DNA from: an uncultured Ignavibacteria bacterium
GTDB taxonomy: Bacteria > Zixibacteria > MSB-5A5 > SM1-73
Assembly: GCA_964588305.1 (NCBI GenBank)
Contig: CAZPOP010000004.1
Location: forward strand, 26,470-90,469
Reading direction: 5' to 3'
Length of the DNA: 64,000 nucleotides
In this document: positions 16,452-40,028 of the stretch, piece after piece
How the letters are laid out: each line of letters opens with the position of its first letter
Position numbering within the stretch: position 1 is the first letter of the stretch
Translations under genes and position numbers: made by a program
The notes under the pieces: model-generated
The model's input: only the letters and a program-made list of their open reading frames with translations
Told to the model about the DNA's origin: nothing
The model's database searches: none

Positions 16452-18008
16452 CTAGAAAAATCCGGTGAAACTCACGATTACCCGACTGTAGTCGTAAGTT
16501 TTCTTGCTGGAAAATGTTTCTTCATACCACGATTCGGAAAATACCTTGTTTGCACGATCAAGAATCTTAAAGCTGGTAGAGACTATCCTTTCTACATCGT
16601 CATATCGGGCATGTTCATAAGTGACATCAAACCTTATCTGGCTCCAGCCTATACCTGTTCCGAAAGCAAGCACACTGCCATCCACCCACGATCCTTTCTC
16701 GACTCCGTAATTAGACTGTATATGGGTAGGCATATAGCTAGGCTCTCCACCAATGTAAGTCAGGTCCGTGCGAATGAAGACCTCACTTGAGTCAACTTGG
16801 GTTTTGAAAAGCTTGGGATCGTTTCTATAACCGGCTCTCAAAGGAATGCTTCCGAATTTGGTGTCTATGGTGTATTCACCCCCAACTCGAAACTGAGTTA
16901 CGTTCCTCCAGCCCAAGCTTGTGGTTACTTTTTCCGCAACGGGATTGGCCAGGTCTTCCCGATAGGTCAGCTCGGCCTTGGAGTAGTTTCTGAATTCCAC
17001 ATCTGCTGCAAGGGTCAGAGATTTTATCTGATACGAGGTGCCGAAGCCAATCATGCTGGGCATCTTCCATTCCCTGTCAGTCTTAAAAAGGGGTGATATG
17101 GAACGAGAGGTCGGCTCATTGACTATTCCGTATTCGATGTAATCAGCAAGAAGCTGGACGTCGTTATCCTCTTTCAAGGTGAAGGGGGTTTTAACAACGC
17201 CTGCCAGACAAAGTTTGTTTATCGAGTACATTGCCCCTATGGTGAAATTGAATCCGGAATAGTCGCTTTCGATGGTAGGATGAAACCTGAATCCGCTGCG
17301 CCCGAACGGATTGACTTCATCATCACCAACCGGCAAGAAGAAATCCACATCACTGGTGAAGTTTCCATTATAAATATTGACCCCGGCTCCCAGGGAAAGA
17401 GACCTAACCCCTATCCCTAAGGAGGCGACGATTTGATCCAATCTACCTGTGACGTTTTCATCTATCGGGGGAAGCAAATAATTCTGGACCGTATCGTAGT
17501 CCACCGCCGTAAGGTATTTGTTCTCCTGATAGACGTCCGCCAATCTCTGATAAAGCACACTTCCGACGACTTCTTTCTCTCCGAGCTTAAACGGGATGAC
17601 AACGCTGGCAAATGAAAGAGCGTTGAGATCATGCTCTAGCTCCACACTGGAGCTGTAGTCCCAAGTCTCCGAAATGGCCGCGGAGGTGTAATCTGTCCGG
17701 TGCTTGGTAGAGCTGAAGGTGAGGTTCATCTGAGATTTGTCCATGTGGGAAAGTCCGGCGGGATTCCACGAGGCGGCAGAGGGGTCATCAGAGACTGCAA
17801 AAAACGCACCTCCCATCCCCCTGGCCTTGGCTCCGCCACCCACAAAATTGTAGTCTGTCAGCTGCAAAGGTGAAAGAAAGAAATCCTGTACGGTAAAATA
17901 CCCAATGGTATCCACCTCCACCTCCCGCCCGAATTTCTGCCCCCCTGAGGCTGAGACAGAAACAAGCAATGAAACCGCTATGATCAGACCCGAAAGCTTT
18001 GACGTCAT
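16452..18008 (-). CDS. Outer-membrane beta-barrel protein (FadL/PorV-like N-terminal motif)
   Basis: Signal peptide, ARGMGGAFFAVSDDPSAASWNPAGL motif, alternating beta-strand pattern, C-terminal ...SFTGFF. TAG stop. Confidence 0.7.
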   Translation of the reverse strand: MTSKLSGLIIAVSLLVSVSASGGQKFGREVEVDTIGYFTVQDFFLSPLQLTDYNFVGGGAKARGMGGAFFAVSDDPSAASWNPAGLSHMDKSQMNLTFSSTKHRTDYTSAAISETWDYSSSVELEHDLNALSFASVVIPFKLGEKEVVGSVLYQRLADVYQENKYLTAVDYDTVQNYLLPPIDENVTGRLDQIVASLGIGVRSLSLGAGVNIYNGNFTSDVDFFLPVGDDEVNPFGRSGFRFHPTIESDYSGFNFTIGAMYSINKLCLAGVVKTPFTLKEDNDVQLLADYIEYGIVNEPTSRSISPLFKTDREWKMPSMIGFGTSYQIKSLTLAADVEFRNYSKAELTYREDLANPVAEKVTTSLGWRNVTQFRVGGEYTIDTKFGSIPLRAGYRNDPKLFKTQVDSSEVFIRTDLTYIGGEPSYMPTHIQSNYGVEKGSWVDGSVLAFGTGIGWSQIRFDVTYEHARYDDVERIVSTSFKILDRANKVFSESWYEETFSSKKTYDYSRVIVSFTGFF

Positions 18009-22217: not shown

Positions 22218-23021
22218 TCAGTGCAGGCTTATCCTCGTGGGGAAAGAGTAGATATTCATCTTGCTCCCGCGAGCGAAGCCGACCAGAGTAATTCCCAGCT
22301 TCTGGGCGTTTTTGATCGCTAAGCTGGTGGGAGCGGATCGAGACACGATTATGTTGACTCCGGATCTGGATGCTTTGGCCAGTATGTCAGAGGAGATTCT
22401 GCCACTCAAAAGAAGTACTTTGTCCGCACAGCTTTCCTCCTCTTGAAAGCATTTGCCGAACACCTTGTCCACGGCGTTGTGTCGACCGATATCTTCAAAA
22501 TAGATTATAATCCTCTCTTTGTTTGCTAAGCTGGCCGCATGGACTCCTCCGGTCTTGCGAAAAAGAACTGATCTTTTCTCGAATTCGGTCATCAGTTGTT
22601 GGATCTCCGGAGAGGCTACGGTGGTCTGAAGATCAATCAATATGTCTTTGGCCGGATCAATATCATCAGTGCTTGAAAAGGTTGCTCCTTTTGCACAGCC
22701 GGAGGTCAAGGTTTTAGGCTGCGAAAAGCTGGATGGAAGCCGCCTTTTGGATTTGGTTTGTATTTTGATCTCGCTTTTTCCCGGATCGAAACTGATCGCC
22801 CGGATGTCCTTTTTGTTTTGGATGAACCCTTCAGAAAAAAGAAAACCTACGGCCAGGTGTTCCTGATCTTGCGGAGTACAGAGAAGGGTTATTACCTCTT
22901 TGTCATTTAGAAAAATCGCAAGCGGTGCCTCGGTGGCAACCAGATCCTCGCTCTCCTCCTTTTTGCCCGAGGTGACCTTGATGATCTTTAACCGATCGAT
23001 CCTTTCGTCTTTCTCATTCAT
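22218..23021 (-). CDS. fdhD: Formate dehydrogenase accessory sulfurtransferase FdhD
   Basis: GGVHAAS and GRHNAVDK motifs. 267 aa. Confidence 0.9.
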   Translation of the reverse strand: MNEKDERIDRLKIIKVTSGKKEESEDLVATEAPLAIFLNDKEVITLLCTPQDQEHLAVGFLFSEGFIQNKKDIRAISFDPGKSEIKIQTKSKRRLPSSFSQPKTLTSGCAKGATFSSTDDIDPAKDILIDLQTTVASPEIQQLMTEFEKRSVLFRKTGGVHAASLANKERIIIYFEDIGRHNAVDKVFGKCFQEEESCADKVLLLSGRISSDILAKASRSGVNIIVSRSAPTSLAIKNAQKLGITLVGFARGSKMNIYSFPTRISLH

Positions 23022-23640
23022 TTTCTTCGGCCATTCCGATCCTTAGGCTCTCAGCTCTTTTCAGGTCCGCCTCGGTGTTGATATTGAAAAAGCTCAGATG
23101 CTGTGGGTCCACCCGGTCAATCTCATTTGCCCCAATTTTCTTCACATACAATTCTCCCAGGACCTCGCGCATTCTCAGATTTTGCGTTTGCAGATGTTCA
23201 AACATCACCGGGATGCAATCTTTGGAATATACGGCAAATAAGGGTTCGACCTCTCCGTTGACTTCTGGGATCACCACATCGAACCTATCCCTTTCCTGCA
23301 GGAGCAATCTAATCAAAGCAGGTTTGATAAATGGCATGTCACAAGCCACCACAAAACTACACCTGGATGAAGAAAAACATAATCCGGTGAAGATTCCCCC
23401 CAAAGGACCGCTCTCCTTTATCAAATCCTCCACCACTTGAACACCGAACTTCAGGTAGGCTTGCTTTTGATCGGTGACGATGATGATTTCCGAAAAGATC
23501 TTCTGCAAAACACTCAGGGTGTTCTGAAGTATGCTCTCTCCCGTGGGAAGTTGAATGAAAGCTTTATTTCTGGCAATTCTGCTATTCTTTCCCCCGGCAA
23601 GGATTATACCGCTTGCTTCTATCATGTCTTCGGAGTTCAC
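23014..23640 (-). CDS. mobA: Molybdenum cofactor guanylyltransferase MobA
   Basis: GIILAGGKNSRI N-terminal motif. About 208 aa. Overlaps fdhD by 8 nt. Confidence 0.85.
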   Translation of the reverse strand: MNSEDMIEASGIILAGGKNSRIARNKAFIQLPTGESILQNTLSVLQKIFSEIIIVTDQKQAYLKFGVQVVEDLIKESGPLGGIFTGLCFSSSRCSFVVACDMPFIKPALIRLLLQERDRFDVVIPEVNGEVEPLFAVYSKDCIPVMFEHLQTQNLRMREVLGELYVKKIGANEIDRVDPQHLSFFNINTEADLKRAESLRIGMAEENE

Positions 23641-23709
23641 GTTCCTTTAATGAATTATGCGGAGGAGTGCTGGTCTTAATGCTGAACCGCTTATCTCCTT
23701 TGATCTCTA

Positions 23710-24204
23710 TTATTCTACGAAATGATGTTCCACGAATTCAATTAGGGAATCAATTTGGCTAGGCAGAAAGTAAGGAACCGCAGAAGAAGGGTCGACGTCC
23801 CCTACCACTGCGACTAAATTATCTTCTGTAGAGCAGAGCAATCCCGAATGTTTCTTGGAGTCGAACACCTCAATCTTGGGGAAGACGGAGTTCTTGAAAC
23901 CTTCCCCAATCACCAGATCACAGTCAGCAAATGCGAAATCCAGAAGCTGTTCAAACTTCCTGCTTCTTAAAGTGCGGGAAAAGAGCGCGATTTTAGTGGG
24001 CGAAAGGATGAGGGTAGATTCTGCTCCGGCTTGAGCATGTCTGAAGGAGTCCTTTCCGGGAGTATCGAATTCATGATCCTGCGTGGTGTACTTCATGCTC
24101 CCAATTCTGTGGCCTTTGCTCTTCAGGCCGGTGATCAGATTCTCAATCAGAGTGGTCTTTCCAACCTTCTTTTTGCCCACGATCAACAGGATTTTCATGC
24201 TCAA
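23710..24204 (-). CDS. mobB: Molybdopterin-guanine dinucleotide biosynthesis adaptor MobB
   Basis: P-loop GKKKVGKTT, then HEFDTPGKDSFRH. Confidence 0.85.
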   Translation of the reverse strand: MSMKILLIVGKKKVGKTTLIENLITGLKSKGHRIGSMKYTTQDHEFDTPGKDSFRHAQAGAESTLILSPTKIALFSRTLRSRKFEQLLDFAFADCDLVIGEGFKNSVFPKIEVFDSKKHSGLLCSTEDNLVAVVGDVDPSSAVPYFLPSQIDSLIEFVEHHFVE

Positions 24205-24283
24205 AGAGATAGTTTTTGGTCTTGATATATTCGAGCCTTTTCAGCCCTATTTCCACATCAGCCCGTCCCATAATCCTGATCTC

Positions 24284-24457
24284 TTACTGGGATAGCTTGA
24301 TTTCAATCCGATTGGGTTTCTCTTCAAGCTTAAGGGATGAGATCATCGTCCAGATAGTATTTCCTAATAGGTGAGTGGCAAAGGGATTGAGACAGACATC
24401 TTTTCCATTCACCTTGACCTCTATGGATCGGGCTTCTTCCTTTTCATAGCTTGCCAT
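24284..24457 (-). CDS. Hypothetical 57-aa protein at the head of mobB-mobA-fdhD
   Basis: ORF MASYEKEEARSIEVKVNGKDV... with GGAG 9 nt upstream. No family recognised. Confidence 0.35.
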   Translation of the reverse strand: MASYEKEEARSIEVKVNGKDVCLNPFATHLLGNTIWTMISSLKLEEKPNRIEIKLSQ

Positions 24458-24477
24458 CTTACGCACTCCCGCAAATC

Positions 24478-24513
24478 AAAAGAGGGGGAGGTGAAGTTCC
24501 TCCCCCTCTTTTT
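24478..24513 (-). terminator. Intrinsic terminator (bidirectional form) ending the fdh transcription unit
   Basis: Perfect 11-bp stem AGAGGGGGAGG/CCTCCCCCTCT with a 7-nt loop, flanked by A- and T-runs. Lies 32 nt past the stop at 24545. Confidence 0.65.
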
Positions 24514-24544
24514 AGGTTATAATTCGGGTCTTGGGTCAGAGAGA

Positions 24545-25192
24545 TCAGAACCGATACGCGAAGACTCCCAACACCCAGAAACCTAATGAGAGCAAAAGGA
24601 GTCCCCTGCCGTATGCTCTTTCCCCGATCTCCTGCCACCTGGTGAATGCTGGCGCTATCTTTCTTCCCAGATTGACTCCAGCTATGATGCCCAAGAAGCT
24701 CAGAAGCGCGGCGAAGCTCCCTTGGGTGAAAACCCAACTGAAGAGTCCGGAAAGACCTCTTTCGGCCCAGTAGGGATTGGCGAATATATAAGCTTGAGAA
24801 AGCGAAAAGACCGTATAGTTCACATAGCTTCCCACAAATCCCACCAGTCCCAGATGAACGGGGCGAGACATCCACTCTTTCTTCTCCGCCAGAGAGAAGG
24901 CCAAATCAAATATGGCGGCCTGCGCCACCACTGCAAATATCTGGCAGTAAAAAATCTGGGACAGGCCCAGCAGTTTGATCCCTGCCGCTATCACCCCGAT
25001 GGCCAGGGTGGAACCAGGTTTCCGAATAACCATTCTGCCGGCCGCCAAAATCAATATTCCGACGAAAGCTAGGATGGGAGAACTGGAATGCAAGCCGACC
25101 TTTCGCATGATATCGATCCCCAAGGCTTCCAGACCTCCCCAGATAGACCCAAAGAGTATGATGCCCAAAATCAACTTCTTCTTCTGTGTCAT
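24545..25192 (-). CDS. Unknown polytopic membrane protein (about 6 TM, 215 aa)
   Basis: Hydrophobic throughout. Only two His, so it is unlikely to be a dihaem cytochrome b. Start lies 16 nt after the porin stop. Confidence 0.5.
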   Translation of the reverse strand: MTQKKKLILGIILFGSIWGGLEALGIDIMRKVGLHSSSPILAFVGILILAAGRMVIRKPGSTLAIGVIAAGIKLLGLSQIFYCQIFAVVAQAAIFDLAFSLAEKKEWMSRPVHLGLVGFVGSYVNYTVFSLSQAYIFANPYWAERGLSGLFSWVFTQGSFAALLSFLGIIAGVNLGRKIAPAFTRWQEIGERAYGRGLLLLSLGFWVLGVFAYRF

Positions 25193-25207
25193 GTGCTACT
25201 CCTCCTC

Positions 25208-26368
25208 TTAAAAGGTGATCTGCACCTGAGCTTGCACGACATCGTTGTCGACCTCTCTTTCTTCTTTGACCCACTCGTAGGTCTCTTCGTCAAACACGTT
25301 CTTGTATCCCGGCTCCATTTTGTGGATAAAGTTCAAGTAGAACATGGCATTGATTCCCTCGAGGTAGTAATTCAGGCCTGCGGTTATCCAGGCTTCCTCG
25401 TCATCATCGCATACTTCGCAGATGTCATTTGAGAACGCAGCTGTCCCATAGCCCATGTCGAAGGTAGCCTCCTCATAACTTGCATCAGTGTCGGGATCGT
25501 GAAAATCGTACCGGGCCAAGAATTCCACCTTTGGGTGCGGTTGAACTCCGACGTGAGCGAAAAAGGCCTGACCATCGACGCTGCTGACGGTGTCGATGTG
25601 GCTGGGAGCATATTCGGTGGAAGCCATAAGGAATTCACCTCTAAACTTCAGGGTGAGGTCATCGGTAGCCTTATAATCTACCAGGGCAAACCCGCCGAAA
25701 CGTTTCATCTCCAGTGTCTCTTCGTCGGGGTTTGACACGCCAGTTGGAGGGGCAGCACTGCCGATCCAGGCGTAACCGCCGGCCCTTATTGTGGCCTGAT
25801 CCAGCGGAGGCTTGAACTCTGCGCGCGCCAGGAAGTCCTTAGCATCGTTGTTGTCCGCGAAGTTATTTGCCGGGTATCCGTTGAAGATTCCCAGGTTGAA
25901 ATCCAGATAGTCCGTTTTGGTCGTGCTCTGGATTCCCACCTGTCGCCACACGGCAAATCTCAGCGTGGTTAGAGGATAGTTTATCATCTCCAACTTCGCA
26001 GTTGAATATGGCATATAGATGGTGAAGTTGGGCAAGAACCTACCGAAGGCGATTTCGGTCTGGGGAATATAGAAAAACTGCGCCTTATAGTCCAATACGC
26101 TTATGCTTCCTCTATGATCAAGCTGGACGAAATACTTGACCTTGTCGGGGACAATGACTCCCCAGAAGAGGAAACGGGCCCGGTTCAGAGTGAAGGAGTC
26201 AAAGCCTGCCTCATCCTCCACATTGTAGATGAAGCCCGCCTGAAGTATGCCTCCCACCTTCAAGGTACCTTTACCGACCTTGATCTCAGCCATCTCTGAG
26301 ATGGCTGAGCTTGAGAGTAACAAAGAAAACAGGATACCCACGATGGCTAAAAAGGTGAGTTTTTTCAT
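25208..26368 (-). CDS. Outer-membrane beta-barrel porin (possibly OprO/P-like anion porin)
   Basis: Signal peptide, alternating beta-strand pattern, C-terminal ...QVQITF. Start lies 6 nt after the fdnH stop. Confidence 0.65.
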   Translation of the reverse strand: MKKLTFLAIVGILFSLLLSSSAISEMAEIKVGKGTLKVGGILQAGFIYNVEDEAGFDSFTLNRARFLFWGVIVPDKVKYFVQLDHRGSISVLDYKAQFFYIPQTEIAFGRFLPNFTIYMPYSTAKLEMINYPLTTLRFAVWRQVGIQSTTKTDYLDFNLGIFNGYPANNFADNNDAKDFLARAEFKPPLDQATIRAGGYAWIGSAAPPTGVSNPDEETLEMKRFGGFALVDYKATDDLTLKFRGEFLMASTEYAPSHIDTVSSVDGQAFFAHVGVQPHPKVEFLARYDFHDPDTDASYEEATFDMGYGTAAFSNDICEVCDDDEEAWITAGLNYYLEGINAMFYLNFIHKMEPGYKNVFDEETYEWVKEEREVDNDVVQAQVQITF

Positions 26369-26373
26369 TTAGT

Positions 26374-27192
26374 CTATCCCTCCTCCGTTTTTGTAACCAG
26401 ATCATCCTTTTTGTCTTTAACTTCTTTCACTTTCCCTAAAACGATTCCCACCAGAGCGGCAGTCAGGGTTAAAGTGCCGAAAGGCTTCAAAAGGTCGTGG
26501 AACAAGCCCAGATCCTCGGATACCTGGGGATCTTTGGGAAGGTCTGGATAGAGGTCCAGAGGTTCCGGAAGGACAAATATCTTCTTGGTTCCGGTTCCCA
26601 ATTCCTTCTCGCCGTAAATCACCGGCTGTCTTCCCTTTTTGGTCAGCCTTTCCACAGCCTTGTAGGCCATTTGTACAATCTTGTCCCGATCTCCAAAGAC
26701 CAGGCAATCGGTGGGACATGCCTTGGCACAGGCCGGCTCTAAGCCGTTTCCCGTTCGGTCGAAGCAGAAGGTACACTTGGTGGATTTTTCCGCTTGGGTG
26801 TCGATCACGGGAATGGTGAAAGGACAGTATTCCCGGCATGCTCCGCAGCCAATGCATAGCTCGCGGTTAACGTATACGGCTCCGGTCTTTTTGTCGTGGG
26901 TCATGGCCTTCACCGGAGTCACCGGGCAAGCCTTGACGCAAGCCGGATCGACGCACTGCATGCAGCGGTGCACCCGGAAGAGCCATTTTAGCTTATCCTT
27001 CTCCTCCTTCTCGTGAAACTTGACCAAGGTGTAGGTGGAGGGGGAGAGCCCAATGGGGTTCTGATATCCTCCGGCCGCCGCGAAAAAGGTGGTCTTCTCT
27101 GCGGGAAGTTCGTTCCACTGCTTGCAGGCCACCTGACAAGCCCGGCAGGCTATGCATTTTTCCATATCCAATAGCAATGCTTTTTCTGCCAT
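26374..27192 (-). CDS. fdnH: Formate dehydrogenase iron-sulfur subunit (FdnH/DmsB family) with a C-terminal TM anchor
   Basis: Four Cys clusters (CIACRACQVAC, CMQCVDPACVKACP, CIGCGACREYCP, CTFC...CAKACP) and the hydrophobic tail LTLTAALVGIVLG. ATG 27192 sits immediately after the fdnG stop. Confidence 0.85.
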   Translation of the reverse strand: MAEKALLLDMEKCIACRACQVACKQWNELPAEKTTFFAAAGGYQNPIGLSPSTYTLVKFHEKEEKDKLKWLFRVHRCMQCVDPACVKACPVTPVKAMTHDKKTGAVYVNRELCIGCGACREYCPFTIPVIDTQAEKSTKCTFCFDRTGNGLEPACAKACPTDCLVFGDRDKIVQMAYKAVERLTKKGRQPVIYGEKELGTGTKKIFVLPEPLDLYPDLPKDPQVSEDLGLFHDLLKPFGTLTLTAALVGIVLGKVKEVKDKKDDLVTKTEEG

Positions 27193-27193
27193 C

Positions 27194-30169
27194 TTATCCC
27201 ACCTCCTTTGCAACGTCGCAGAGGAACGCCTTATATTCAGGAATGTTGGTGTTGGCATCCCCCACGTGGGGAGTCAAACGGTTAGCACTATCTCCCTTTG
27301 CTAATCCCTTAAATCCGAAATGCCAGGGAAGACCGATCTGTTCATAGGCCTTTCCATTCAGCTTGAATGGCTTGAAACGCCTGGTCACCACCGCGTAAGC
27401 AACTATGTGTCCTCGCGCGGTCGATATCCGCACCTTATCCCCGTTCTTAACGCCCTTGGATTTGCCCAAAGATTCGCTCATCTCCACGAACATATCAGGC
27501 ATGAGCTCAACCAGCCAAGGATTGTTTCTGGTCATCTGGCCTGCCTGCCAGTGCTCGGTGACCCGATAAGTGGTAGCGATAATGGGGTATTTGTCAGGCG
27601 AGCCAACCGCGTCCATTTCCCCCGCCCAGATCTTAATGGTAGGATTGCTCTGCTGAGAGGACATGGCATTCTTCACCGGCGCTTCGAGGGGCTCGTAGTG
27701 CTCCGGGAAGGGACCATCTGCAAGACCGAAGCCAAAAAGGCGAGCGTGTCCCTCCGGCTTCATGATGAATGAGTATTTCTCTCCCGGAGGCCATCCTCCG
27801 TCTGGGACGTCTCCGGCCCATTTGGTCTCGGGACCGGTCCACTTAACCACCCACTTATTGGGAGCATAAGGATTGCCCTGAAGGTCGCAGGAAGCTCGAT
27901 TATAGATTATCCTGCGATTCACCGGCCAACACCAAGCCCATCCGGGATATAGCCCAATCTTGTTGGGAGCATCCTCCAGGCCCCGACGGGCTGCCATATT
28001 TCCATCTTCGGTGTAGCTAGCACAATAGAGCCAGTTGCCTGACGAGGTGGTGCCATCGTCCATGAGTTTGGCAAAGGAGGCAGCCAATTTGCCGGTTGTG
28101 AGATGATAACCATTGATATCTTTGGCTACCAGGTGTACGTCAGGCTCTTCTCCCTCACCATAATTCCAATTTAGATTCACGATAGGATCAGGGAACGCGC
28201 CACCCTCGCCTGCATACAGCTTTTTCAGTTCTTTGGCTATTCGATTCAGGATCCACAAGTCGGACTTGGCATTGCCCGGAGGATGGACCGCCGCGTATCT
28301 CCACTGCATCCAACGACCGCTGTTAGTAATGCTCCCCTCCTTCTCCATTGACGCGGCCGCCGGGAGCATAAAGACCTCTGTCTTTATGTTCTTGGGATCC
28401 ACTGCGGGATCAGCCCAGAAACCAGCAGTCTCAGTCTCCCAGAGGTCTGCTGCGATCAGCCAATCCAACCTTTCCAGCGCCTTTCTCTCCTTCAAGACGT
28501 TGGGTCCCGCCACCGCCGGATTCTGACCCATACAGATCAGCCCCTTGATCACTCCATCATACATGGCTTCGAACAAGGCTATGTGATCACAATTAGCACT
28601 CACCTTGGGAAGATACTGATAGCAGAATTCGTTATCCTTCTGAGCCTTGTCTCCCCAGAAAGCCTTCAACAGGCTAACCATGTACTTGGGAGTGTGCTGC
28701 CACCAATTAGCGCTCTTGGGATCATTCGACTTGGGCGTCCAGTGCTCCAAATACTGAGCCAAGGTTTGGTCCTTAACCCGAGGAGTCTTGAGATAGCCGG
28801 GAATGATGTGGAATAGGAGAGCGTAATCAGTGGAACCTTGCACGTTCGATTCGCCACGTAGGGCATTGATTCCTCCGCCAGCCACTCCCACGTTTCCCAA
28901 CAGCAGCTGAAGCATGGCGTAGGTGCGCACGTTCTGAGTACCCACAGTATGCTGAGTGGTCCCCATAGCGTACATGATAGTGCCTGATTTTTCCTTGGCA
29001 CCGGTCGCTCCGTAGGTCTTCGCCACCTCCACCATCAGCTCCGAAGGACATCCAGTAATGCTGGACACCTTCTCGGGGGTGTAACGGGAGAGGTGCTTCT
29101 TGAGAAGCTGAAACACGCACCGCGGGTCCTGCAGGGTCGGATCCTTTTTCGGATTTCCATCCGCATCCAGCTGGTAGATCCAGGTTTCTTTCCTATACAT
29201 TCTTTTGGCTTGATCGTAACCGGTGAAAAGCCCGTCATCGAATCCGAAACCCTCATCCACCATGAAGCTAGCGTTGGTGTGATCCACCAGGTAGTCCTTA
29301 TTGTAAAGATTGTTCTGGATGATGTAGTTCATCAGCCCATCGACGAATGCGATATCGGATCCCGATCTTATGGGTGCGTAGATGTCTGCTCTGGCCGAGG
29401 TGCGAGTGAAACGGGGATCGACGCTGATCAGCTTCGCCCCGTTATCCATAGCTTTGCTCACCCAACGGAAAGAAATGGGATGATTCTCTGCCGCATTGGA
29501 ACCGATGATCATGATGCAGTCAGCATTCTTGATGTCAATCCAGTGATTGGTCATGGCCCCTCTGCCGTAAGTCTCCGCCAAACTGGCGACTGTGGCAGAG
29601 TGTCATATGCGTGCCTGATGTTCCAAGTAAACGATGCCCAGGGCCCGAGCCAGCTTGGACCAGAGGTAGCACTCCTCATTGTCCAACGCGGCTCCGCCCA
29701 AACCTGCCAAGGCCTCGACCCGGTTCACCACGCGTCCCTGATCATCCGCTGCCGCCCAGCCTTCATCCCTGGTCTTCTTTATTCTCTTGGCCATCTCCGG
29801 TATGGCCCAATCCCAGCTTTTCTCCTCCCATTTGTCACTGTAGGGAGCTCTATAGAGAACCTTGGTCATCCGCCTTTCATTATTGGCTATCTGAATCAAG
29901 GCCTCTCCCTTACTGCAGAGCGATCCCTGATTTATGGGATGGTCCGGATCGCCTTCAATGTTTATCACTTTTCCATTGCTGACCGAAACGATCTGTGAGC
30001 ATCCCACTCCGCAATAAGGGCAAATGGTGGTGCTCTCCTTGGCATACTGGGTCTTAAGGTTCTGCGCATATGCTTCAGAAGTTCGCAAGTGAACCCCCAG
30101 ACCGCCTAAGATCGCCCCGCCCGTGACCCCTCCGGAGACTTTTAGAAAACCTCTTCTCGAGATTTTCAT
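27194..30169 (-). CDS. fdnG: Periplasmic formate dehydrogenase catalytic subunit (FdnG-type molybdopterin enzyme), selenocysteine at codon 189
   Basis: ORFs 29603..30169 and 27194..29581 are in one frame, joined by TGA 29603-29605. The junction ...LEHQARI-U-HSATVASLAETYGRGAMTNHW matches the FdnG Sec site (QARVUHGPTVA...FGRGAMTNHW). Twin-arginine signal SRRGFLK. N-terminal Cys cluster CPYCGVGC. Confidence 0.92.
29560..29600 (-). promoter_or_regulatory. SECIS-type hairpin following the fdnG UGA
   Basis: Lower stem CUCUGCC/GGCAGAG (nt 3-9 / 37-43 after UGA). Upper stem CGCC/GGCG (nt 15-18 / 24-27). Apical loop AGUUU. Confidence 0.6.
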
Positions 30170-30202
30170 ATGCTTCGTTCACCTCCTTCTTGAAGTTTGT
30201 GT

Positions 30203-30721
30203 TTATTTGTTCTCTTTCTTCTCTTCTTCTTTTTTCATCAATTCGACATCCGGTTCATATATCTCGTTAAGCATAAACATGGATCTGTTTATTTTTTCGA
30301 TTTCCTCCTCTGAAATTCCTGACTTCTCCTTTTTGGCCATCCTCTCTATGATTGCGTTCATCTCAGCTTGGTCTTTGGTCTGGTGAGCCTTGACCACTAC
30401 GGCCAGAGAATGGCATTTTCCGCACTTCTCCTGGAATAGGTTCTTGTGAGGTTCTTCCACGGGAAGCAAGGTAAAGGTTGCCTCTATCTCCTTTAGAGAT
30501 TGTTCGCTTATGTTTATCCCTGCCTTGTCGTGCATTTCCTTCATGATTTTCTCCATCCCCGTCCTCACGTCCTGCAGGGTATGGCAGATCGAGCATCTCT
30601 GCTCGAAGGCGGTCGGCTCTGACTTCTTGGGAGCCACCTGCTGTGTCGTCTGAGCAAACACCCAGACCAATGCAGCAGTCGACATCAGCAGAATACCACC
30701 ACAGATCCTGACTGCTTTCAT
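30203..30721 (-). CDS. Dihaem c-type cytochrome (172 aa, signal/anchor helix)
   Basis: Two CXXCH motifs (CSICH, CGKCH), each in a similar repeated module. N-terminal hydrophobic helix, Lys/Glu-rich tail. Confidence 0.72.
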   Translation of the reverse strand: MKAVRICGGILLMSTAALVWVFAQTTQQVAPKKSEPTAFEQRCSICHTLQDVRTGMEKIMKEMHDKAGINISEQSLKEIEATFTLLPVEEPHKNLFQEKCGKCHSLAVVVKAHQTKDQAEMNAIIERMAKKEKSGISEEEIEKINRSMFMLNEIYEPDVELMKKEEEKKENK

Positions 30722-30820
30722 AGCGTTTCACCTCCTCAACGTTTTTGTGTTACCGTACGTGTTCAGAGTTATGCCACTTTGTGATTCTTTTCACATGGGC
30801 GCTCAAAGGGACCCTTGCTC

Positions 30821-31678
30821 CTATGAGACGATGATCGAGCCCGAAATCTGGGTCTTGAGATAGTTGGGGTTTTGGTATCCGTCCTTTTGGGCCAGGATGT
30901 CCAAATAAAGAGTGTTTATGTTCTCTTTGGAAAAATCTGGAGTCTCGTTTTCGGGCATCTTTCTTTCGTCGATCGTCTTAATGTACTTCTTGCATTTGTC
31001 GCATACATCTACCCTGAAGGGCCCCTTATCCGAGGATGAATCTCCCTCGGTGAAGAAGTATCTCAAAGTGTTGTGATCTTCATTGCCACAGAAGGGACAC
31101 ATTATTCTCTTGTAGTGCCACTGAGTGCCACAGAGACTGCACCACAGAATCCTTTTACCGTCCTCTCTTCTCAGTTTTTCCATCGCCGGCAAACTTCCAC
31201 AAAGAGGGCAATTCCCCTTAAGCCAACTTTCACGGTCGATTTTGTCCTGAAATTTCTCAGCGAAAACCTCAAAGAACGTCTGCACCAGATTCAGCCCCAA
31301 AAACAAAAGCAGATCCGGGTTCAAATTGAGCTGATTAGCAAGAGATTTAATCTCCTGTGGATCTCCGATCAGAACCGACCTGGTGAGCCTGGTGATATCC
31401 ATCTTTTCTCTCTTCTGCATTAGATCCTGGATTTCCGAAGGAGTGAAGGCCTGGTATTTTTCCAGAATGGGACACAGGATTCCGAGAAGCTCTTCTGAGA
31501 GTTTTCCATCAAGTTCTATCTTCTCTCTGGCGAGCAGGGGCCGCCCTTCTTTTGCTCGTTTTTGAATGCTTTCATGATCAACAACTATTGTCTCCCGGTG
31601 GACGCTTCTGAAATTATCTTTAGCGCCATTCAGCTCAGCAAGGAATTCGGAATGTTGTTTAGTACCTTCTTGTGTCAT
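30821..31678 (-). CDS. fdhE: Formate dehydrogenase accessory protein FdhE
   Basis: Four CXXC pairs (CPLCGS, CSLCGT, CPFCGN, CDKCKKY) in FdhE spacing. 285 aa. TAG stop. Confidence 0.85.
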   Translation of the reverse strand: MTQEGTKQHSEFLAELNGAKDNFRSVHRETIVVDHESIQKRAKEGRPLLAREKIELDGKLSEELLGILCPILEKYQAFTPSEIQDLMQKREKMDITRLTRSVLIGDPQEIKSLANQLNLNPDLLLFLGLNLVQTFFEVFAEKFQDKIDRESWLKGNCPLCGSLPAMEKLRREDGKRILWCSLCGTQWHYKRIMCPFCGNEDHNTLRYFFTEGDSSSDKGPFRVDVCDKCKKYIKTIDERKMPENETPDFSKENINTLYLDILAQKDGYQNPNYLKTQISGSIIVS

Positions 31679-32002: not shown

Positions 32003-32037
32003 AAAAACCGGACAGATTTTCGATCCGTCCGGTTTTT
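32003..32037 (-). terminator. Intrinsic terminator after the MtrB-like gene
   Basis: AAAAACCGGAC...GTCCGGTTTTT stem with flanking A/T runs, 29 nt past the TAA at 32066. Confidence 0.65.
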
Positions 32038-32065
32038 GGGTTATTCGTTTTTTCGACCTGTAAGC

Positions 32066-34246
32066 TTAGAAACCAATTCTCACGCCGCTTCGAATCACAA
32101 ACAAAAAGCCGGTCTCGATGCCGTAGACATATCCCTTGTCATCGGTCAAATCATAGTATGCTGCATCTGCGGTCAGCGAGATTCTTGGAGAAAGTGCATA
32201 CTCTGCTCCCGCGGAGATGTTGAACTGGGTATAGGCCAGATCAGAGTATTGGTTGATCGAGCTGAAATCGTAATCGGCTGCGGCAATATCGTCCGTCACC
32301 TCCTGTGGGACCTTGGTCATTCTACCCATGGTCAAAGTGCCTTTACTGTCGATGTAGTTTCCGTCCAGAGTGAGGCTTATCTTTTCGTTAGCCAGAAACA
32401 GAATGCCGGCGGAGAATGAAAGTGCTTCGTTTTGGTATTCGGTCTCAGCGAAAAAGGAACCATAATGCTTGGGATCGCCACTACCTGTGGCGGCAAGATG
32501 ACCCCCTCACCCATCCATCATGGCCACTGCGGCCAGCCCGTTTGATTTGTGATAAACATAGGCCACGCTGCCGAAGACATTCGACTTCAGAGTCGGGGCG
32601 AAACTGACCAAAACCTGAGGGTGCAACTGGGTGCGCTCGAAATCCAGACTGTCTGTGTCACCGTTTGTTCCCAAGCTGGCCTTTAAGGTCGCGGAGAGGG
32701 AGATCTTATGGTCGGGCTTGAAGTTCAGATCAAGCTCAACCCCATGCAAGTTCGTTGGCTGATTGGTTATGCTGCCATAGCGTAACGTATCTCGCTGGAA
32801 ATAATACCACCAATTGTTGTCAGGCAGCTTTTCCAAAACATCCTGGCCAGCTCTCTCAAATAGCTGCTCATATGGCGAAAAAGGGTCATCGGTGTTTTCG
32901 AAGAAATACTTGAGGCGTCCGGAATATCTCAGGTTGGGCCGGTATTTTCCCCCGGCTGAAAACCGAAGCTTGGTTGTTTTTCCTTCAGCCCCATAGTAAG
33001 GATAGTCATCCCTTTTCGTCCCTTCGTAACCAGCGGACAAAAAGACCCTGTATTTTCTGCTGGGCTGATAGATGAGCTCGGCAGAACCTTTTGCCACTGT
33101 CCGGGTGAGATTGGAATAACGGGTCCAATCAAAATCCTGACCGCCCCCGGTCAATCCGTCACGCCATAACGGTAGGTCTACGGGTACCTCATCACTCTCG
33201 ACCCGGGAGAGCGAAGCCAAAGCAATCATCTTGGTTTTCAGGTTCGGTCGGAATACATACTTGAAAATGCCACCATTGCTGTTTGCTTCGATTCCGGCAG
33301 AGACATTCTTGGCCTGAGAGTGAGTGAAACTTCCCGAAATCTCGCTTTTTTCCCCGAGATCAGCCTTCACCTTGGCGGTATGAGACATCTTCTGGGTTTC
33401 AGGAGTGGTGCCGAATTCGACCACCTCACCATTGAAGACGGTCCGGGTACCGAACTCATCCAGCAGAGTGCCATTCACGGGGTGCTGGGCGGTGTCGTAA
33501 AACGCCTCCGGGCCAGGCACCTCCGATTTGAAAGTGCGGAAGCTTCCCACATAGGAGAAAAACAGAGGCCCCGGGTCGATTTCAATCCCAGCAGATGCCG
33601 TGTGCGTGCGGCGATCAACCTTCACGGACTTGGAGATCATATGGCAGGAGGAACAGTGCATGGAGATCACCTTCTGCTCATCTCCCTTCTCCAAGATGGA
33701 ACGATGTGCGGCGATGATTTTCAGCATGACAGAGCCCGGGATTTTAACCTGGAAGTCCGATTTTATCTCGTACCGGGTATAGCCGAAATTGGCGTCCGGC
33801 ACCTCGTGCTCGTAGGTGAACATTTTTCCACCAGGTTTGTTCTGCTGATCCACTGCCTCACGAGCCATCAGATTCTCCAGAAGGTCCGTCGCGCGGTGTC
33901 GGTAAAAAGAGCGGTAGGAAACCAGACCAGAAAAACCGTCTTTTGATTTTCCCGCCAGGTCAAAAGAGATTCTCTTGGGATCATAATAATGGCCAAGGAA
34001 ATCCAGGCTTTGATCTTTTCGGTATCCGGAAAAGCTGAGAGATATCTCTGGAACCGCTTCCTCTTTTCCCCGGTCGAACTCTCCGACTTTTTTTGAGAAA
34101 TCCTGGTAGCCGGTATAGTGACTCCCCAGCCAGAGACTCCAAACAGAATGAGCGGCCTCCTCTTCAGAAAAAGCAAGTAAGGAAAAAATCGGCAAAACCA
34201 AACCTAGTGATAAAATGAAAAGGGATCTTAAGAACGATGTTTTCAT
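32066..34246 (-). CDS. MtrB/PioB-like giant outer-membrane beta-barrel, 726 codons with one in-frame TGA (32507-32509)
   Basis: Signal peptide and AAGGAG RBS. ORFs 32507..34246 and 32066..32335 plus the stretch between them form a single frame. Ends ...SGVRIGF. Lies 10 nt downstream of the decahaem cytochrome gene. Contains CSSCH. Confidence 0.7.
32468..32497 (-). promoter_or_regulatory. SECIS-like hairpin downstream of the in-frame UGA of the barrel gene (hypothetical function)
   Basis: CUUG-C-CGCCAC-[AGGUA]-GUGGCG-AUCC-CAAG. The upper stem begins at nt 15 after UGA, as in fdnG. Confidence 0.35.
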
Positions 34247-34256
34247 ATTTCTCTCC

Positions 34257-35216
34257 TTATCTTGTTAATGCTCTTCCTCCACCCGAAATGGACTGGGACG
34301 GCAGATCACTTCCGTGAATCTCCGAGTGACACTGAGTGCATTTGGTCAACATCGCCCTCTTCATGCCGTCGCGAGTGGAGATGCCCTCTCGCTCGGGATG
34401 CATTGGAGCATTGAACTCTCCCTCATACCCCACCAGAGTAACATGGAAGTGCATGGGATGACAGGATAAGCAGAGAAAAGGCTCATTCTGCAAAAGCATC
34501 TTGTCGGCGACGGTTCCGTGTGGATCATGACAGATTCCGCAGTCCTCGTTAACCGGTTGGTGCTCGAAGATGAATGGGCCCTGCAGCGAGGCATGACAGG
34601 ACAAGCAGAGTTCACGACCGTCGTCCCCTACCGCATACTTGACCTCTCCCGAATGAATGGGGTGACAGTCCGAACAGCTCACTAAGCCTTCCATAACCGG
34701 ATGATGGGAGGGCATTCGGGCCTGGGCACGTTTGTCTGCGTGACAGTCAAAACAGAGTGAGGGCTCCTGCTTTGTTAAAAGATGTTTACCCTCGGAATGA
34801 ATCCTGTGACAATCGCCACAGCCTTCTGCTGTCTCGAAATGAGTCGATCCGTGCCAGGAGGCGAAAGCCGGGCCCTTGTGGCAATTGGTGCACAGATTGG
34901 TTCCCGTGGCGGTATAATCTTTAGGCGGATTATAAATCAGCGTGGGATCTCCTTCTTCGGCATGCGCCGAGCCCGGCCCATGACAAGCCTCACAGGTGTT
35001 TTCATCCCCCACCGATAATCTGGCATGAATGTTTTTTTCAAATTTCTCAGAGACTTCCTCATGGCATGCTGAACAGAGCTCATCACCCACTTCCACCGCA
35101 TCAGGAGGCAAACCACCCGTTACGTATGCCGCTGGAAGAAGAAGCAGGCAGAAAACAAAAACCAACAGTGGGCCGGTTGAGTTCTTGGCTGTAAGGTATT
35201 TGAGAGACCTAAACAT
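34257..35216 (-). CDS. Periplasmic decahaem c-type cytochrome, MtrA/DmsE/PioA/MtoA family
   Basis: 319 aa with a signal peptide and ten CXXCH motifs: CSACH, CEACH, CTNCH, CGDCH, CFDCH, CSDCH, CLSCH, CGICH, CLSCH, CTQCH. Confidence 0.88.
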   Translation of the reverse strand: MFRSLKYLTAKNSTGPLLVFVFCLLLLPAAYVTGGLPPDAVEVGDELCSACHEEVSEKFEKNIHARLSVGDENTCEACHGPGSAHAEEGDPTLIYNPPKDYTATGTNLCTNCHKGPAFASWHGSTHFETAEGCGDCHRIHSEGKHLLTKQEPSLCFDCHADKRAQARMPSHHPVMEGLVSCSDCHPIHSGEVKYAVGDDGRELCLSCHASLQGPFIFEHQPVNEDCGICHDPHGTVADKMLLQNEPFLCLSCHPMHFHVTLVGYEGEFNAPMHPEREGISTRDGMKRAMLTKCTQCHSEIHGSDLPSQSISGGGRALTR

Positions 35217-35355: not shown

Positions 35356-35384
35356 AATTTAAGGAACCTCATAATCGGTGTCAA
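35356..35384 (-). promoter_or_regulatory. Sigma70-like promoter candidate for the cytochrome-barrel operon (TTGACA-N17-TAAATT)
   Basis: Reverse complement reads TTGACAccgattatgaggttcctTAAATT, about 140 nt upstream of the ATG at 35216. Confidence 0.35.
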
Positions 35385-39464: not shown

Positions 39465-40028
39465 TCAGAATCCATCGTTTTTATCTGTGAAGTCGATGAT
39501 TGGATATTGGGCAAAAATGCTTCCCATATACTCCTCACCGAATTTTCTCAAATAGTAATTATAACTCGAGAATTCGTAATCCTCGCATTTCTTCCCATAA
39601 CCGTGTTTCACTGGATTATGATGTATATAGTTGAATCTTTTGTAAAATGTCTGTTCATTCCTTATGCAATTATCCCAGTAATTCCACCAGACTTGTCTTC
39701 CCCTTTTACTCTCAGAAAAATTGAGGTCGAAAGAACTACCACCATGCACAAAACCGACAAACTCTCCCAGATTTTCTTCTTCTTTGAACTGAAAAAGAAA
39801 ATGATAGTGATTGGACAAAATCACCCAGGCAAAAATTCTAACCTTATACCGGATTGCACCAGATTTCAATTTGCTTTTTATGATTTCCTTTTTAGCCGGG
39901 GTATTAAAGAAATTTTCCTTGTTTAATGTGGATGCCGTTACGAAATATATTTTGTCATCCAAATACAAATGGAATGGTTTATGACGTTTGAATCTTGTAT
40001 CCTTCAGCATATTCGAATTTTTATTCAT
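39465..40028 (-). CDS. IS200/IS605-like Y1 (HUH) transposase of the REP-associated (RAYT) type
   Basis: 187 aa with the HUH motif NHYHFLF and catalytic-Tyr region YIHHNPVKHGY. Flanked on both sides by REP-like repeats. Confidence 0.75.
   Translation of the reverse strand: MNKNSNMLKDTRFKRHKPFHLYLDDKIYFVTASTLNKENFFNTPAKKEIIKSKLKSGAIRYKVRIFAWVILSNHYHFLFQFKEEENLGEFVGFVHGGSSFDLNFSESKRGRQVWWNYWDNCIRNEQTFYKRFNYIHHNPVKHGYGKKCEDYEFSSYNYYLRKFGEEYMGSIFAQYPIIDFTDKNDGF

Follow-up and report, generated by a model that had tools for sequence, protein, structure and literature searches.

A predicted haem- and selenium-bearing barrel in an OmcK/OmcL-type porin-cytochrome locus of an uncultured Ignavibacteria bacterium

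Porin-cytochrome conduits let bacteria respire minerals or electrodes and exchange electrons with partner cells. A 64-kb stretch of DNA from an uncultured Ignavibacteria bacterium (contig CAZPOP010000004.1; the whole stretch is called the window here) carries, on its minus strand, a gene for a decahaem cytochrome followed by a gene for a large outer-membrane barrel, and it raises the question of what would meet the outside world in a conduit that has no gene for a surface cytochrome beside it. The sequence-only reading of this pair had proposed a plain conduit without an outer partner, as in Fe(II) oxidisers, and mentioned neither an in-frame TGA in the barrel gene nor a haem attachment motif in the barrel. 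Taking both features into account, we consider it likely that the locus is a two-gene operon for a porin-cytochrome conduit of the OmcK/OmcL type, with a selenocysteine and a haem site in the barrel itself. These two features are what make the OmcK/OmcL family unusual.

The cytochrome, the barrel and their family

The cytochrome gene (Table 1) encodes a protein of 319 amino acids with exactly ten CXXCH motifs, a signal peptide of the general Sec type and no lipobox. The list of open reading frames (ORFs) and the motif count agree in this with the sequence-only reading, which had also assigned the protein to the MtrA/DmsE type. That assignment is borne out by family models and alignment. The cytochrome scores 210.6 bits against TIGR03508 (DmsE/MtrA family; cut-off 192.2) and 348.4 bits against NF041028, the "GSU2203 family decaheme c-type cytochrome" (cut-off 325), and its residues 44 to 308 align with residues 63 to 328 of MtrA (6r2q_A; E-value 1.5e-37), collinear across all ten haem motifs. 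The protein is a decahaem homologue of MtrA with a predicted export to the periplasm. The decahaem gene directly precedes the barrel gene in all related loci whose DNA extends upstream.

The barrel frame opens with a signal peptide and runs for about 726–727 codons, one in-frame UGA included, to a C-terminus of ...VRIGF, which is a beta-signal. The secreted barrel of ~726 codons that had been described earlier is thus right in the length and the end of its frame but not as an uninterrupted gene, as codon 580 is TGA. Residues 1–579, ahead of this codon, score 518.2 bits against NF041027 (cut-off 350) and cover profile positions 3–580 of 580; the model is named "GSU2204 family CXXCH-containing (seleno)protein" and stops exactly at the TGA. 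The models for MtrB and PioB remain below their cut-offs, with TIGR03509 (MtrB/PioB) matching the C-terminal piece of the barrel only, at 12.5 bits against 240.05, and PF11854 (Pfam MtrB_PioB) reaching 20.2 bits against 23. When the alignment of the barrel family was searched as a profile against PDB sequences, there was no match, and MtrB was detected by fold comparison alone.

Structures were modelled for a natural homologue with cysteine in place of the UGA codon (P0189, full length, alignment of 118 rows) and, separately, for residues 1–579 of the window barrel. The P0189 model (AlphaFold) has a mean predicted local distance difference test score (pLDDT) of 90.2 and a predicted template modelling (TM) score (pTM) of 0.86, and the window model (AlphaFold2, AF2) has a pLDDT of 88.6. 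For both, the top Foldseek match in the PDB is MtrB (6r2q_B), with an E-value of 1.9e-22 and TM scores of 0.68/0.75 for P0189, and an E-value of 2.2e-11 and TMq of 0.65 for the window barrel; the next-best folds for both models are 22-strand TonB-dependent receptors (TM about 0.35–0.46). DSSP assigns 26 long strands, provided that a short strand in loop 3 does not cross the membrane. On one side of the barrel all turns have at most 5 residues, and the loops of 13–44 residues are all on the other; the sides were named by counting back from the periplasmic C-terminus according to the standard topology rules for outer-membrane proteins (OMPs). On these models the barrel is an outer-membrane protein of the MtrB fold with about 26 strands. 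Calling it MtrB/PioB-type, as had been done, is therefore correct for the fold but not for the family models, and the idea of a conduit across the outer membrane likewise stands at the level of fold and superfamily but not in its family assignment.

Judged by their best family models, both proteins are of the OmcK/OmcL (GSU2203/GSU2204) lineage, which is distinct from PioAB/MtoAB. OmcK/OmcL is a known, already catalogued family to which the window pair belongs by sequence, with a function that is predicted. GSU2203 (OmcK) and GSU2204 (OmcL) are both up-regulated with hematite and magnetite (PMC4070692), and "OmcKL" has been put forward as a conduit, with high expression in HotSeep-1, a syntrophic sulfate reducer that partners methane-oxidising archaea (PMC10553843). 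Published expression data for the family come from settings of mineral reduction as well as of electron acceptance. As early as 2013, homologues of MtrAB that lack surface cytochromes were noted in Zixibacteria (RBG-1; PMC3903129). The family is widespread, occurring in Zixibacteria, Ignavibacteria, Calditrichota and Desulfobacterota. We found the decahaem-barrel pair strictly conserved in about 40 loci, the nearest relatives being metagenome-assembled genomes of Zixibacteria and 'Ignavibacteria' with 72–84% identity.

The two genes are closely joined. The TAA stop of the cytochrome gene (34259–34257) overlaps the AAGGAG ribosome-binding site, and ten nucleotides (nt) separate it from the barrel ATG at 34246, just as the sequence-only reading had it. 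The strong terminator that it placed after the barrel was also recovered, as a hairpin of -24.6 kcal/mol (z = -4.5 against shuffled sequences) with a U-run. No other ORF with CXXCH lies in the two-gene unit, and no gene for an MtrC-type surface cytochrome is present in the operon, in agreement with the earlier statement that no MtrC/OmcA-type protein belongs to it. The sole other CXXCH ORF within the 64 kb is a dihaem gene of the formate dehydrogenase (fdh) operon, and no further multihaem gene occurs in the window. However, this arrangement does not lead to the conclusion once drawn from it, that there is no outer partner, as in Fe(II) oxidisers, since the barrel is itself predicted to be a selenoprotein with c-type haem; with both proteins in the GSU2203/GSU2204 families, the analogy with PioAB/MtoAB was given up.

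In about 25 more distant loci (L009–L037), the barrel gene is followed, ~0.5 kb downstream, by genes for cytochromes of 6 to 21 haems, which the window's subclade is without. Among the products are large multihaem cytochromes (11, 17, 19 or 21 haems; 600–990 amino acids) and 6-haem proteins of ~505 amino acids with an N-terminal transmembrane helix; most of these proteins have ordinary signal peptides, and most lack a lipobox. They may be periplasmic, inner-membrane or external partners, which in the window's subclade may be encoded elsewhere or lacking.

The in-frame UGA of the barrel gene

The mechanical ORF list breaks the barrel gene at codon 580 into a 579-residue protein and a separate tail. 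This break is shared far beyond the window. In all 43 genome loci compared, down to 21% identity, a TGA follows the homologous glycine, and in all 43 the frame behind it stays open for 137–165 codons and closes with an OMP-type terminus. The loci come from five phyla (Zixibacteria, 'Ignavibacteria', Calditrichota, one deltaproteobacterium and one acidobacterium). The same TGA-bearing locus is present, identical, in two independent assemblies (JGI and Logan), and the codon is therefore not an assembly error. Protein databases are cut at the same place: the 100 closest homologues, down to 28% identity, all have 565–610 residues and stop at ...DG, and nearly all of the 185 relatives from an exhaustive search of 1.84 billion representatives end at this point. 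The C-terminal 146 residues of the barrel match only orphan ORFs of 84–148 amino acids, with 58–92% identity. Two homologues have cysteine at the position of the UGA, namely P0189 (725 residues, VLEG-C-GGG), which is called as a single ORF, and P0161 (723 residues, VIEG-C-GAG).

Downstream of the UGA, starting 14 nt after it, is a hairpin with a 6-bp stem and an AGGUA loop that resembles a selenocysteine insertion sequence (SECIS). Nearly all related loci have a hairpin of 5–8 bp with a G/U-containing loop about 14–18 nt past the UGA. The hairpin was assessed by energy rank and by counts of paired positions; a naive longest-stem finder gave inconsistent hairpins. The segment after the UGA folds better than ~96% of the equal-sized segments of its own gene (median) and is in the top 5% of these for 26 of 44 sequences. 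In an unfitted MAFFT alignment of 43 sequences, 81.7% of cells are paired compared with 63% in shuffles, and double-sided changes number 51 where 15.7 are expected, a count reached in none of 500 shuffles. Moreover, the covariation score of the hairpin is 0.471, and slid controls give 0.096 or less. No Rfam family matches the barrel hairpin.

An internal control lies 2 kb downstream, in the fdhA gene (27194–30169, minus strand) for a Tat-exported formate dehydrogenase of the FdnG type, which has a canonical selenocysteine UGA (...EHQARI-U; TGA at 29603–29605). Its SECIS element (29550–29608) scores 30.9 bits with the Rfam model SECIS_3, whose gathering score of 63 it does not reach. The selenocysteine-type FdhA together with its SECIS_3-like element implies that the genome has the machinery for decoding selenocysteine.

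Taken together, codon conservation, cysteine forms and hairpin make it very probable that the barrel gene is a selenoprotein gene. A published list of prokaryotic selenoprotein families includes the GSU2204 family but gives no motif or function for it (PMC13188914). Decoding of the UGA as selenocysteine, to which its conservation points, would yield the full barrel of 726 residues; a product ending at the UGA would lack the beta-signal and the last five strands. In public gene calls the barrel appears as a 579-residue "hypothetical protein" and an orphan "predicted porin" of 84–148 residues (32066–32335, minus strand, in the window; an 87-residue gene in L045/L046). This mis-annotation of the UGA, with one barrel entered as two ORFs, runs through metagenome databases.

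The haem motif and the outer face of the barrel

The barrel carries a single CXXCH motif of its own (CSSCH, residues 198–202), in which C198, C201 and H202 are invariant in homologue alignments of 16, 22 and 96 sequences. According to DSSP of both models, beta7 and beta8 (residues 175–195 and 201–225 of the window barrel) form a long hairpin with the motif at its tip, and the OMP topology rules would place the motif on the extracellular side. In the modelled fold, selenocysteine 580 is in the glycine-rich loop 11 between beta21 and beta22, and by the same rules it is predicted to be extracellular as well. Positions conserved in at least 90% of sequences make up 15.4% of the extracellular-side loops, 6.8% of the strands and 0% of the periplasmic turns. 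Conservation that is best in the extracellular-side loops is the opposite of what ordinary porins show and therefore indicates a functional site there.

Haem motif and selenocysteine do not always occur together. Seven distant homologues of 718–783 residues (P0209, P0218, P0232, P0237, P0221, P0230 and P0243) keep the CXXCH but have neither selenocysteine nor cysteine at the homologous position, and selenocysteine is therefore not needed for haem attachment. As judged from these sequences, haem-bearing MtrB-like barrels are a wider group than the selenoprotein subfamily. The proposal that selenocysteine is an obligatory distal ligand of the haem was rejected, as CXXCH persists where G, T, S or K takes its place. 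A weaker form of it, that a ligand-type residue is always present at this position, was also rejected, since lysine occurs in just two distant homologues.

By homology with MtrAB, the decahaem cytochrome would be threaded through the barrel and would carry electrons across the outer membrane. We hypothesize that the covalent haem of the barrel and the nearby selenocysteine would form an eleventh, outermost redox site, which might stand in for a separate MtrC-type surface cytochrome and pass electrons between haem 10 of the cytochrome and a partner outside the cell, for example a mineral, a soluble species or a second cell. The selenocysteine could be a ligand, a redox or catalytic residue, or a metal-binding residue. 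Whether electrons would be exported or taken up cannot be inferred from the sequence, a point on which we agree with the sequence-only reading. In a bolder form of this hypothesis, haem and selenocysteine of the OmcL-type barrel make up a joint, conserved active site on the cell surface, so that the two proteins, with eleven haems between them, would work on extracellular substrates as a complete conduit or as a terminal oxidoreductase and would need no MtrC-type partner. In that site, the eleventh haem, borne by the porin, would either be ligated axially, in a switchable way, by selenocysteine or feed a catalytic selenolate. We know of no selenoenzyme site described so far on the outer surface of a bacterial cell; the joint site would be the first, and we regard it as unlikely.

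Several observations weigh against a selenium- and haem-bearing conduit. The full-length model is that of P0189, which is just 22% identical to the window barrel, and in this model the selenocysteine loop has a pLDDT below 50. The CXXCH and selenocysteine loops are ~14 strands apart, on opposite walls of the barrel. The residue at the selenocysteine position of the distant homologues is G, T, S or K, with K in two only. In the 64-kb window (~32 ORFs scanned), no tRNA-Sec and no selA, selB or selD were found. A haem-loaded loop on the outer face would require an assembly route, which is hypothetical, and the presence of selenium and haem in every family member is itself predicted from sequence.

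Other explanations of the locus were weighed against the same evidence. A plain pair of the MtrAB/PioAB/MtoAB type, in which the 726-residue barrel is a passive sheath without a cofactor, as in Fe(II) oxidisers, would account for an MtrB-like fold around an MtrA-like cytochrome and for the weak, sub-threshold match to PF11854, and such a reading, as MtrAB, was put forward in 2013 for Zixibacteria RBG-1 (PMC3903129). It leaves the in-frame TGA and the invariant CXXCH without a place, however, and the barrel is below the cut-offs of the MtrB/PioB models and far above that of the GSU2204 model. Moreover, a passive sheath would not be expected to have its most conserved residues in the extracellular-side loops, and we consider this explanation very improbable. 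Still harder to credit is that the TGA is a real stop, leaving either a pseudogene with a 579-residue product or a split barrel whose C-terminal ~90–146 residues are made separately. If the gene were a decaying pseudogene, the TGA would not be expected at the identical codon, ahead of an open frame of 137–165 codons, in all 43 loci, even if gene callers annotate a stop everywhere. While the in-frame TTG at 32335 is a potential start for an ORF of 89 amino acids, the called starts of the tail vary (84–148 residues), and the tail has no signal peptide and is therefore not exportable alone. The tail is also conserved as protein (58–92% identity) and carries the beta-signal, the SECIS-like hairpin covaries, and the cysteine forms are single ORFs of 723–725 residues.

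A different arrangement of the same proteins, in which OmcK is extracellular and docks on the outside of OmcL while an unlinked periplasmic cytochrome fills the barrel, was put forward by Murali et al. 2023. Their paper calls OmcK extracellular and notes that no gene for a periplasmic cytochrome is adjacent (PMC10553843), and a localisation table elsewhere gives "Extracellular" (PMC13194489). We hold this arrangement to be quite improbable for the window pair, whose cytochrome has its ten haem motifs collinear with those of MtrA (the subunit inside the barrel in 6R2Q), passes the DmsE/MtrA model and has an ordinary signal peptide without a lipobox.

Compared with known systems, the likely OmcK/OmcL-type conduit of the window shares with OmcK/OmcL of Geobacter sulfurreducens the gene order from decahaem to barrel, the CXXCH of the barrel and selenocysteine or cysteine at the conserved position; the host lineage differs, and the likeness is one of sequence and architecture only. 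With the MtrAB core of Shewanella MtrCAB (6R2Q) it has in common the homology to MtrA across ten haems, the MtrB fold (TM 0.65–0.75) and ~26 strands. However, the window barrel is ~10–12% identical to MtrB and fails the MtrB/PioB cut-offs, no gene for an MtrC-type lipoprotein is adjacent, and the barrel has CXXCH and a predicted selenocysteine, neither of which is a known feature of MtrB. PioAB and MtoAB of Fe(II) oxidisers are likewise two-gene cytochrome-barrel units without a surface cytochrome gene, but the best models for the window pair are GSU2203 and GSU2204 rather than MtrB/PioB, and its barrel has the haem and selenocysteine motifs. Cyc2 of Fe(II) oxidisers is a fused cytochrome-porin, an outer-membrane barrel polypeptide with a single c-type haem motif. 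It has an N-terminal cytochrome domain, a small barrel of ~16 strands and no partner decahaem, whereas the window barrel is MtrB-like, with 26 strands, has the motif at the tip of a hairpin and is predicted to hold a decahaem inside. ExtKL of the Geobacter ExtHIJKL cluster (NF040886), which we compared by description only, is also a predicted selenoprotein of a porin-cytochrome cluster, but here selenocysteine is in a multihaem cytochrome and not in the porin. It is listed beside the GSU2204 family (PMC13188914).

The ecological literature consulted here treats the OmcL-type barrel as an ordinary MtrB-like porin. A barrel that bears haem and selenium, both on a conserved outer face, is a testable idea for how a conduit could do without a surface cytochrome, and, if true, it would tie the availability of selenium to extracellular electron transfer.

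Features and surroundings of the pair

Table 1. Features of the two-gene unit, in window coordinates
Feature	Position	Strand	Basis
Promoter candidate, sigma-70-like, TTGACA-17-TAAATT, upstream of the cytochrome gene	35356..35384	-	Consensus scan, 10/12; pattern match only
OmcK-like (GSU2203-family) decahaem c-type cytochrome, MtrA homologue, 319 residues	34257..35216	-	Ten CXXCH motifs and hidden Markov models (HMMs)
AAGGAG ribosome-binding site of the barrel gene, overlapping the cytochrome stop	34253..34258	-	Sequence reading
OmcL-like (GSU2204-family) outer-membrane barrel gene	32066..34246	-	Translation, NF041027, AF2 fold
CSSCH haem c attachment motif of the barrel, residues 198–202	33641..33655	-	Invariant residues in homologues
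In-frame UGA, barrel codon 580, context MMDG-U-GGH	32507..32509	-	Conserved TGA, cysteine forms, curated family
SECIS-like hairpin, CGCCAC-AGGUA-GUGGCG	32476..32492	-	Folds, energy rank, covariation
Intrinsic terminator, end of the two-gene operon	32003..32038	-	16-bp hairpin and U-run

The fdh operon (22218–31678, minus strand) adjoins the pair and comprises an fdhE-like gene, the dihaem cytochrome gene, fdhA (with selenocysteine), fdhB, mobB, mobA and fdhD. The dihaem c-type cytochrome has 172 residues (30203–30721). Two further ORFs of the operon (25208–26368, 386 residues; 24545–25192, 215 residues) have no Pfam or NCBIfam match and are possibly membrane subunits. A periplasmic formate dehydrogenase with its own c-type cytochrome beside the conduit could supply electrons to it. 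A functional link between the two was nevertheless found to be unsupported, as the fdh neighbourhood is common only to the closest relative (L001).

The other flanks that were scanned consist mostly of housekeeping genes. Among these is a weak ORF resembling an IS200/Y1 transposase (39465–40028, minus strand; Pfam Y1_Tnp, 27 bits), which adjoins the region of lowest G+C content in the window (40–42 kb, 40.6%). A homologue of FadL/TodX-type outer-membrane transporters (16452–18008, minus strand) fits a diderm host.

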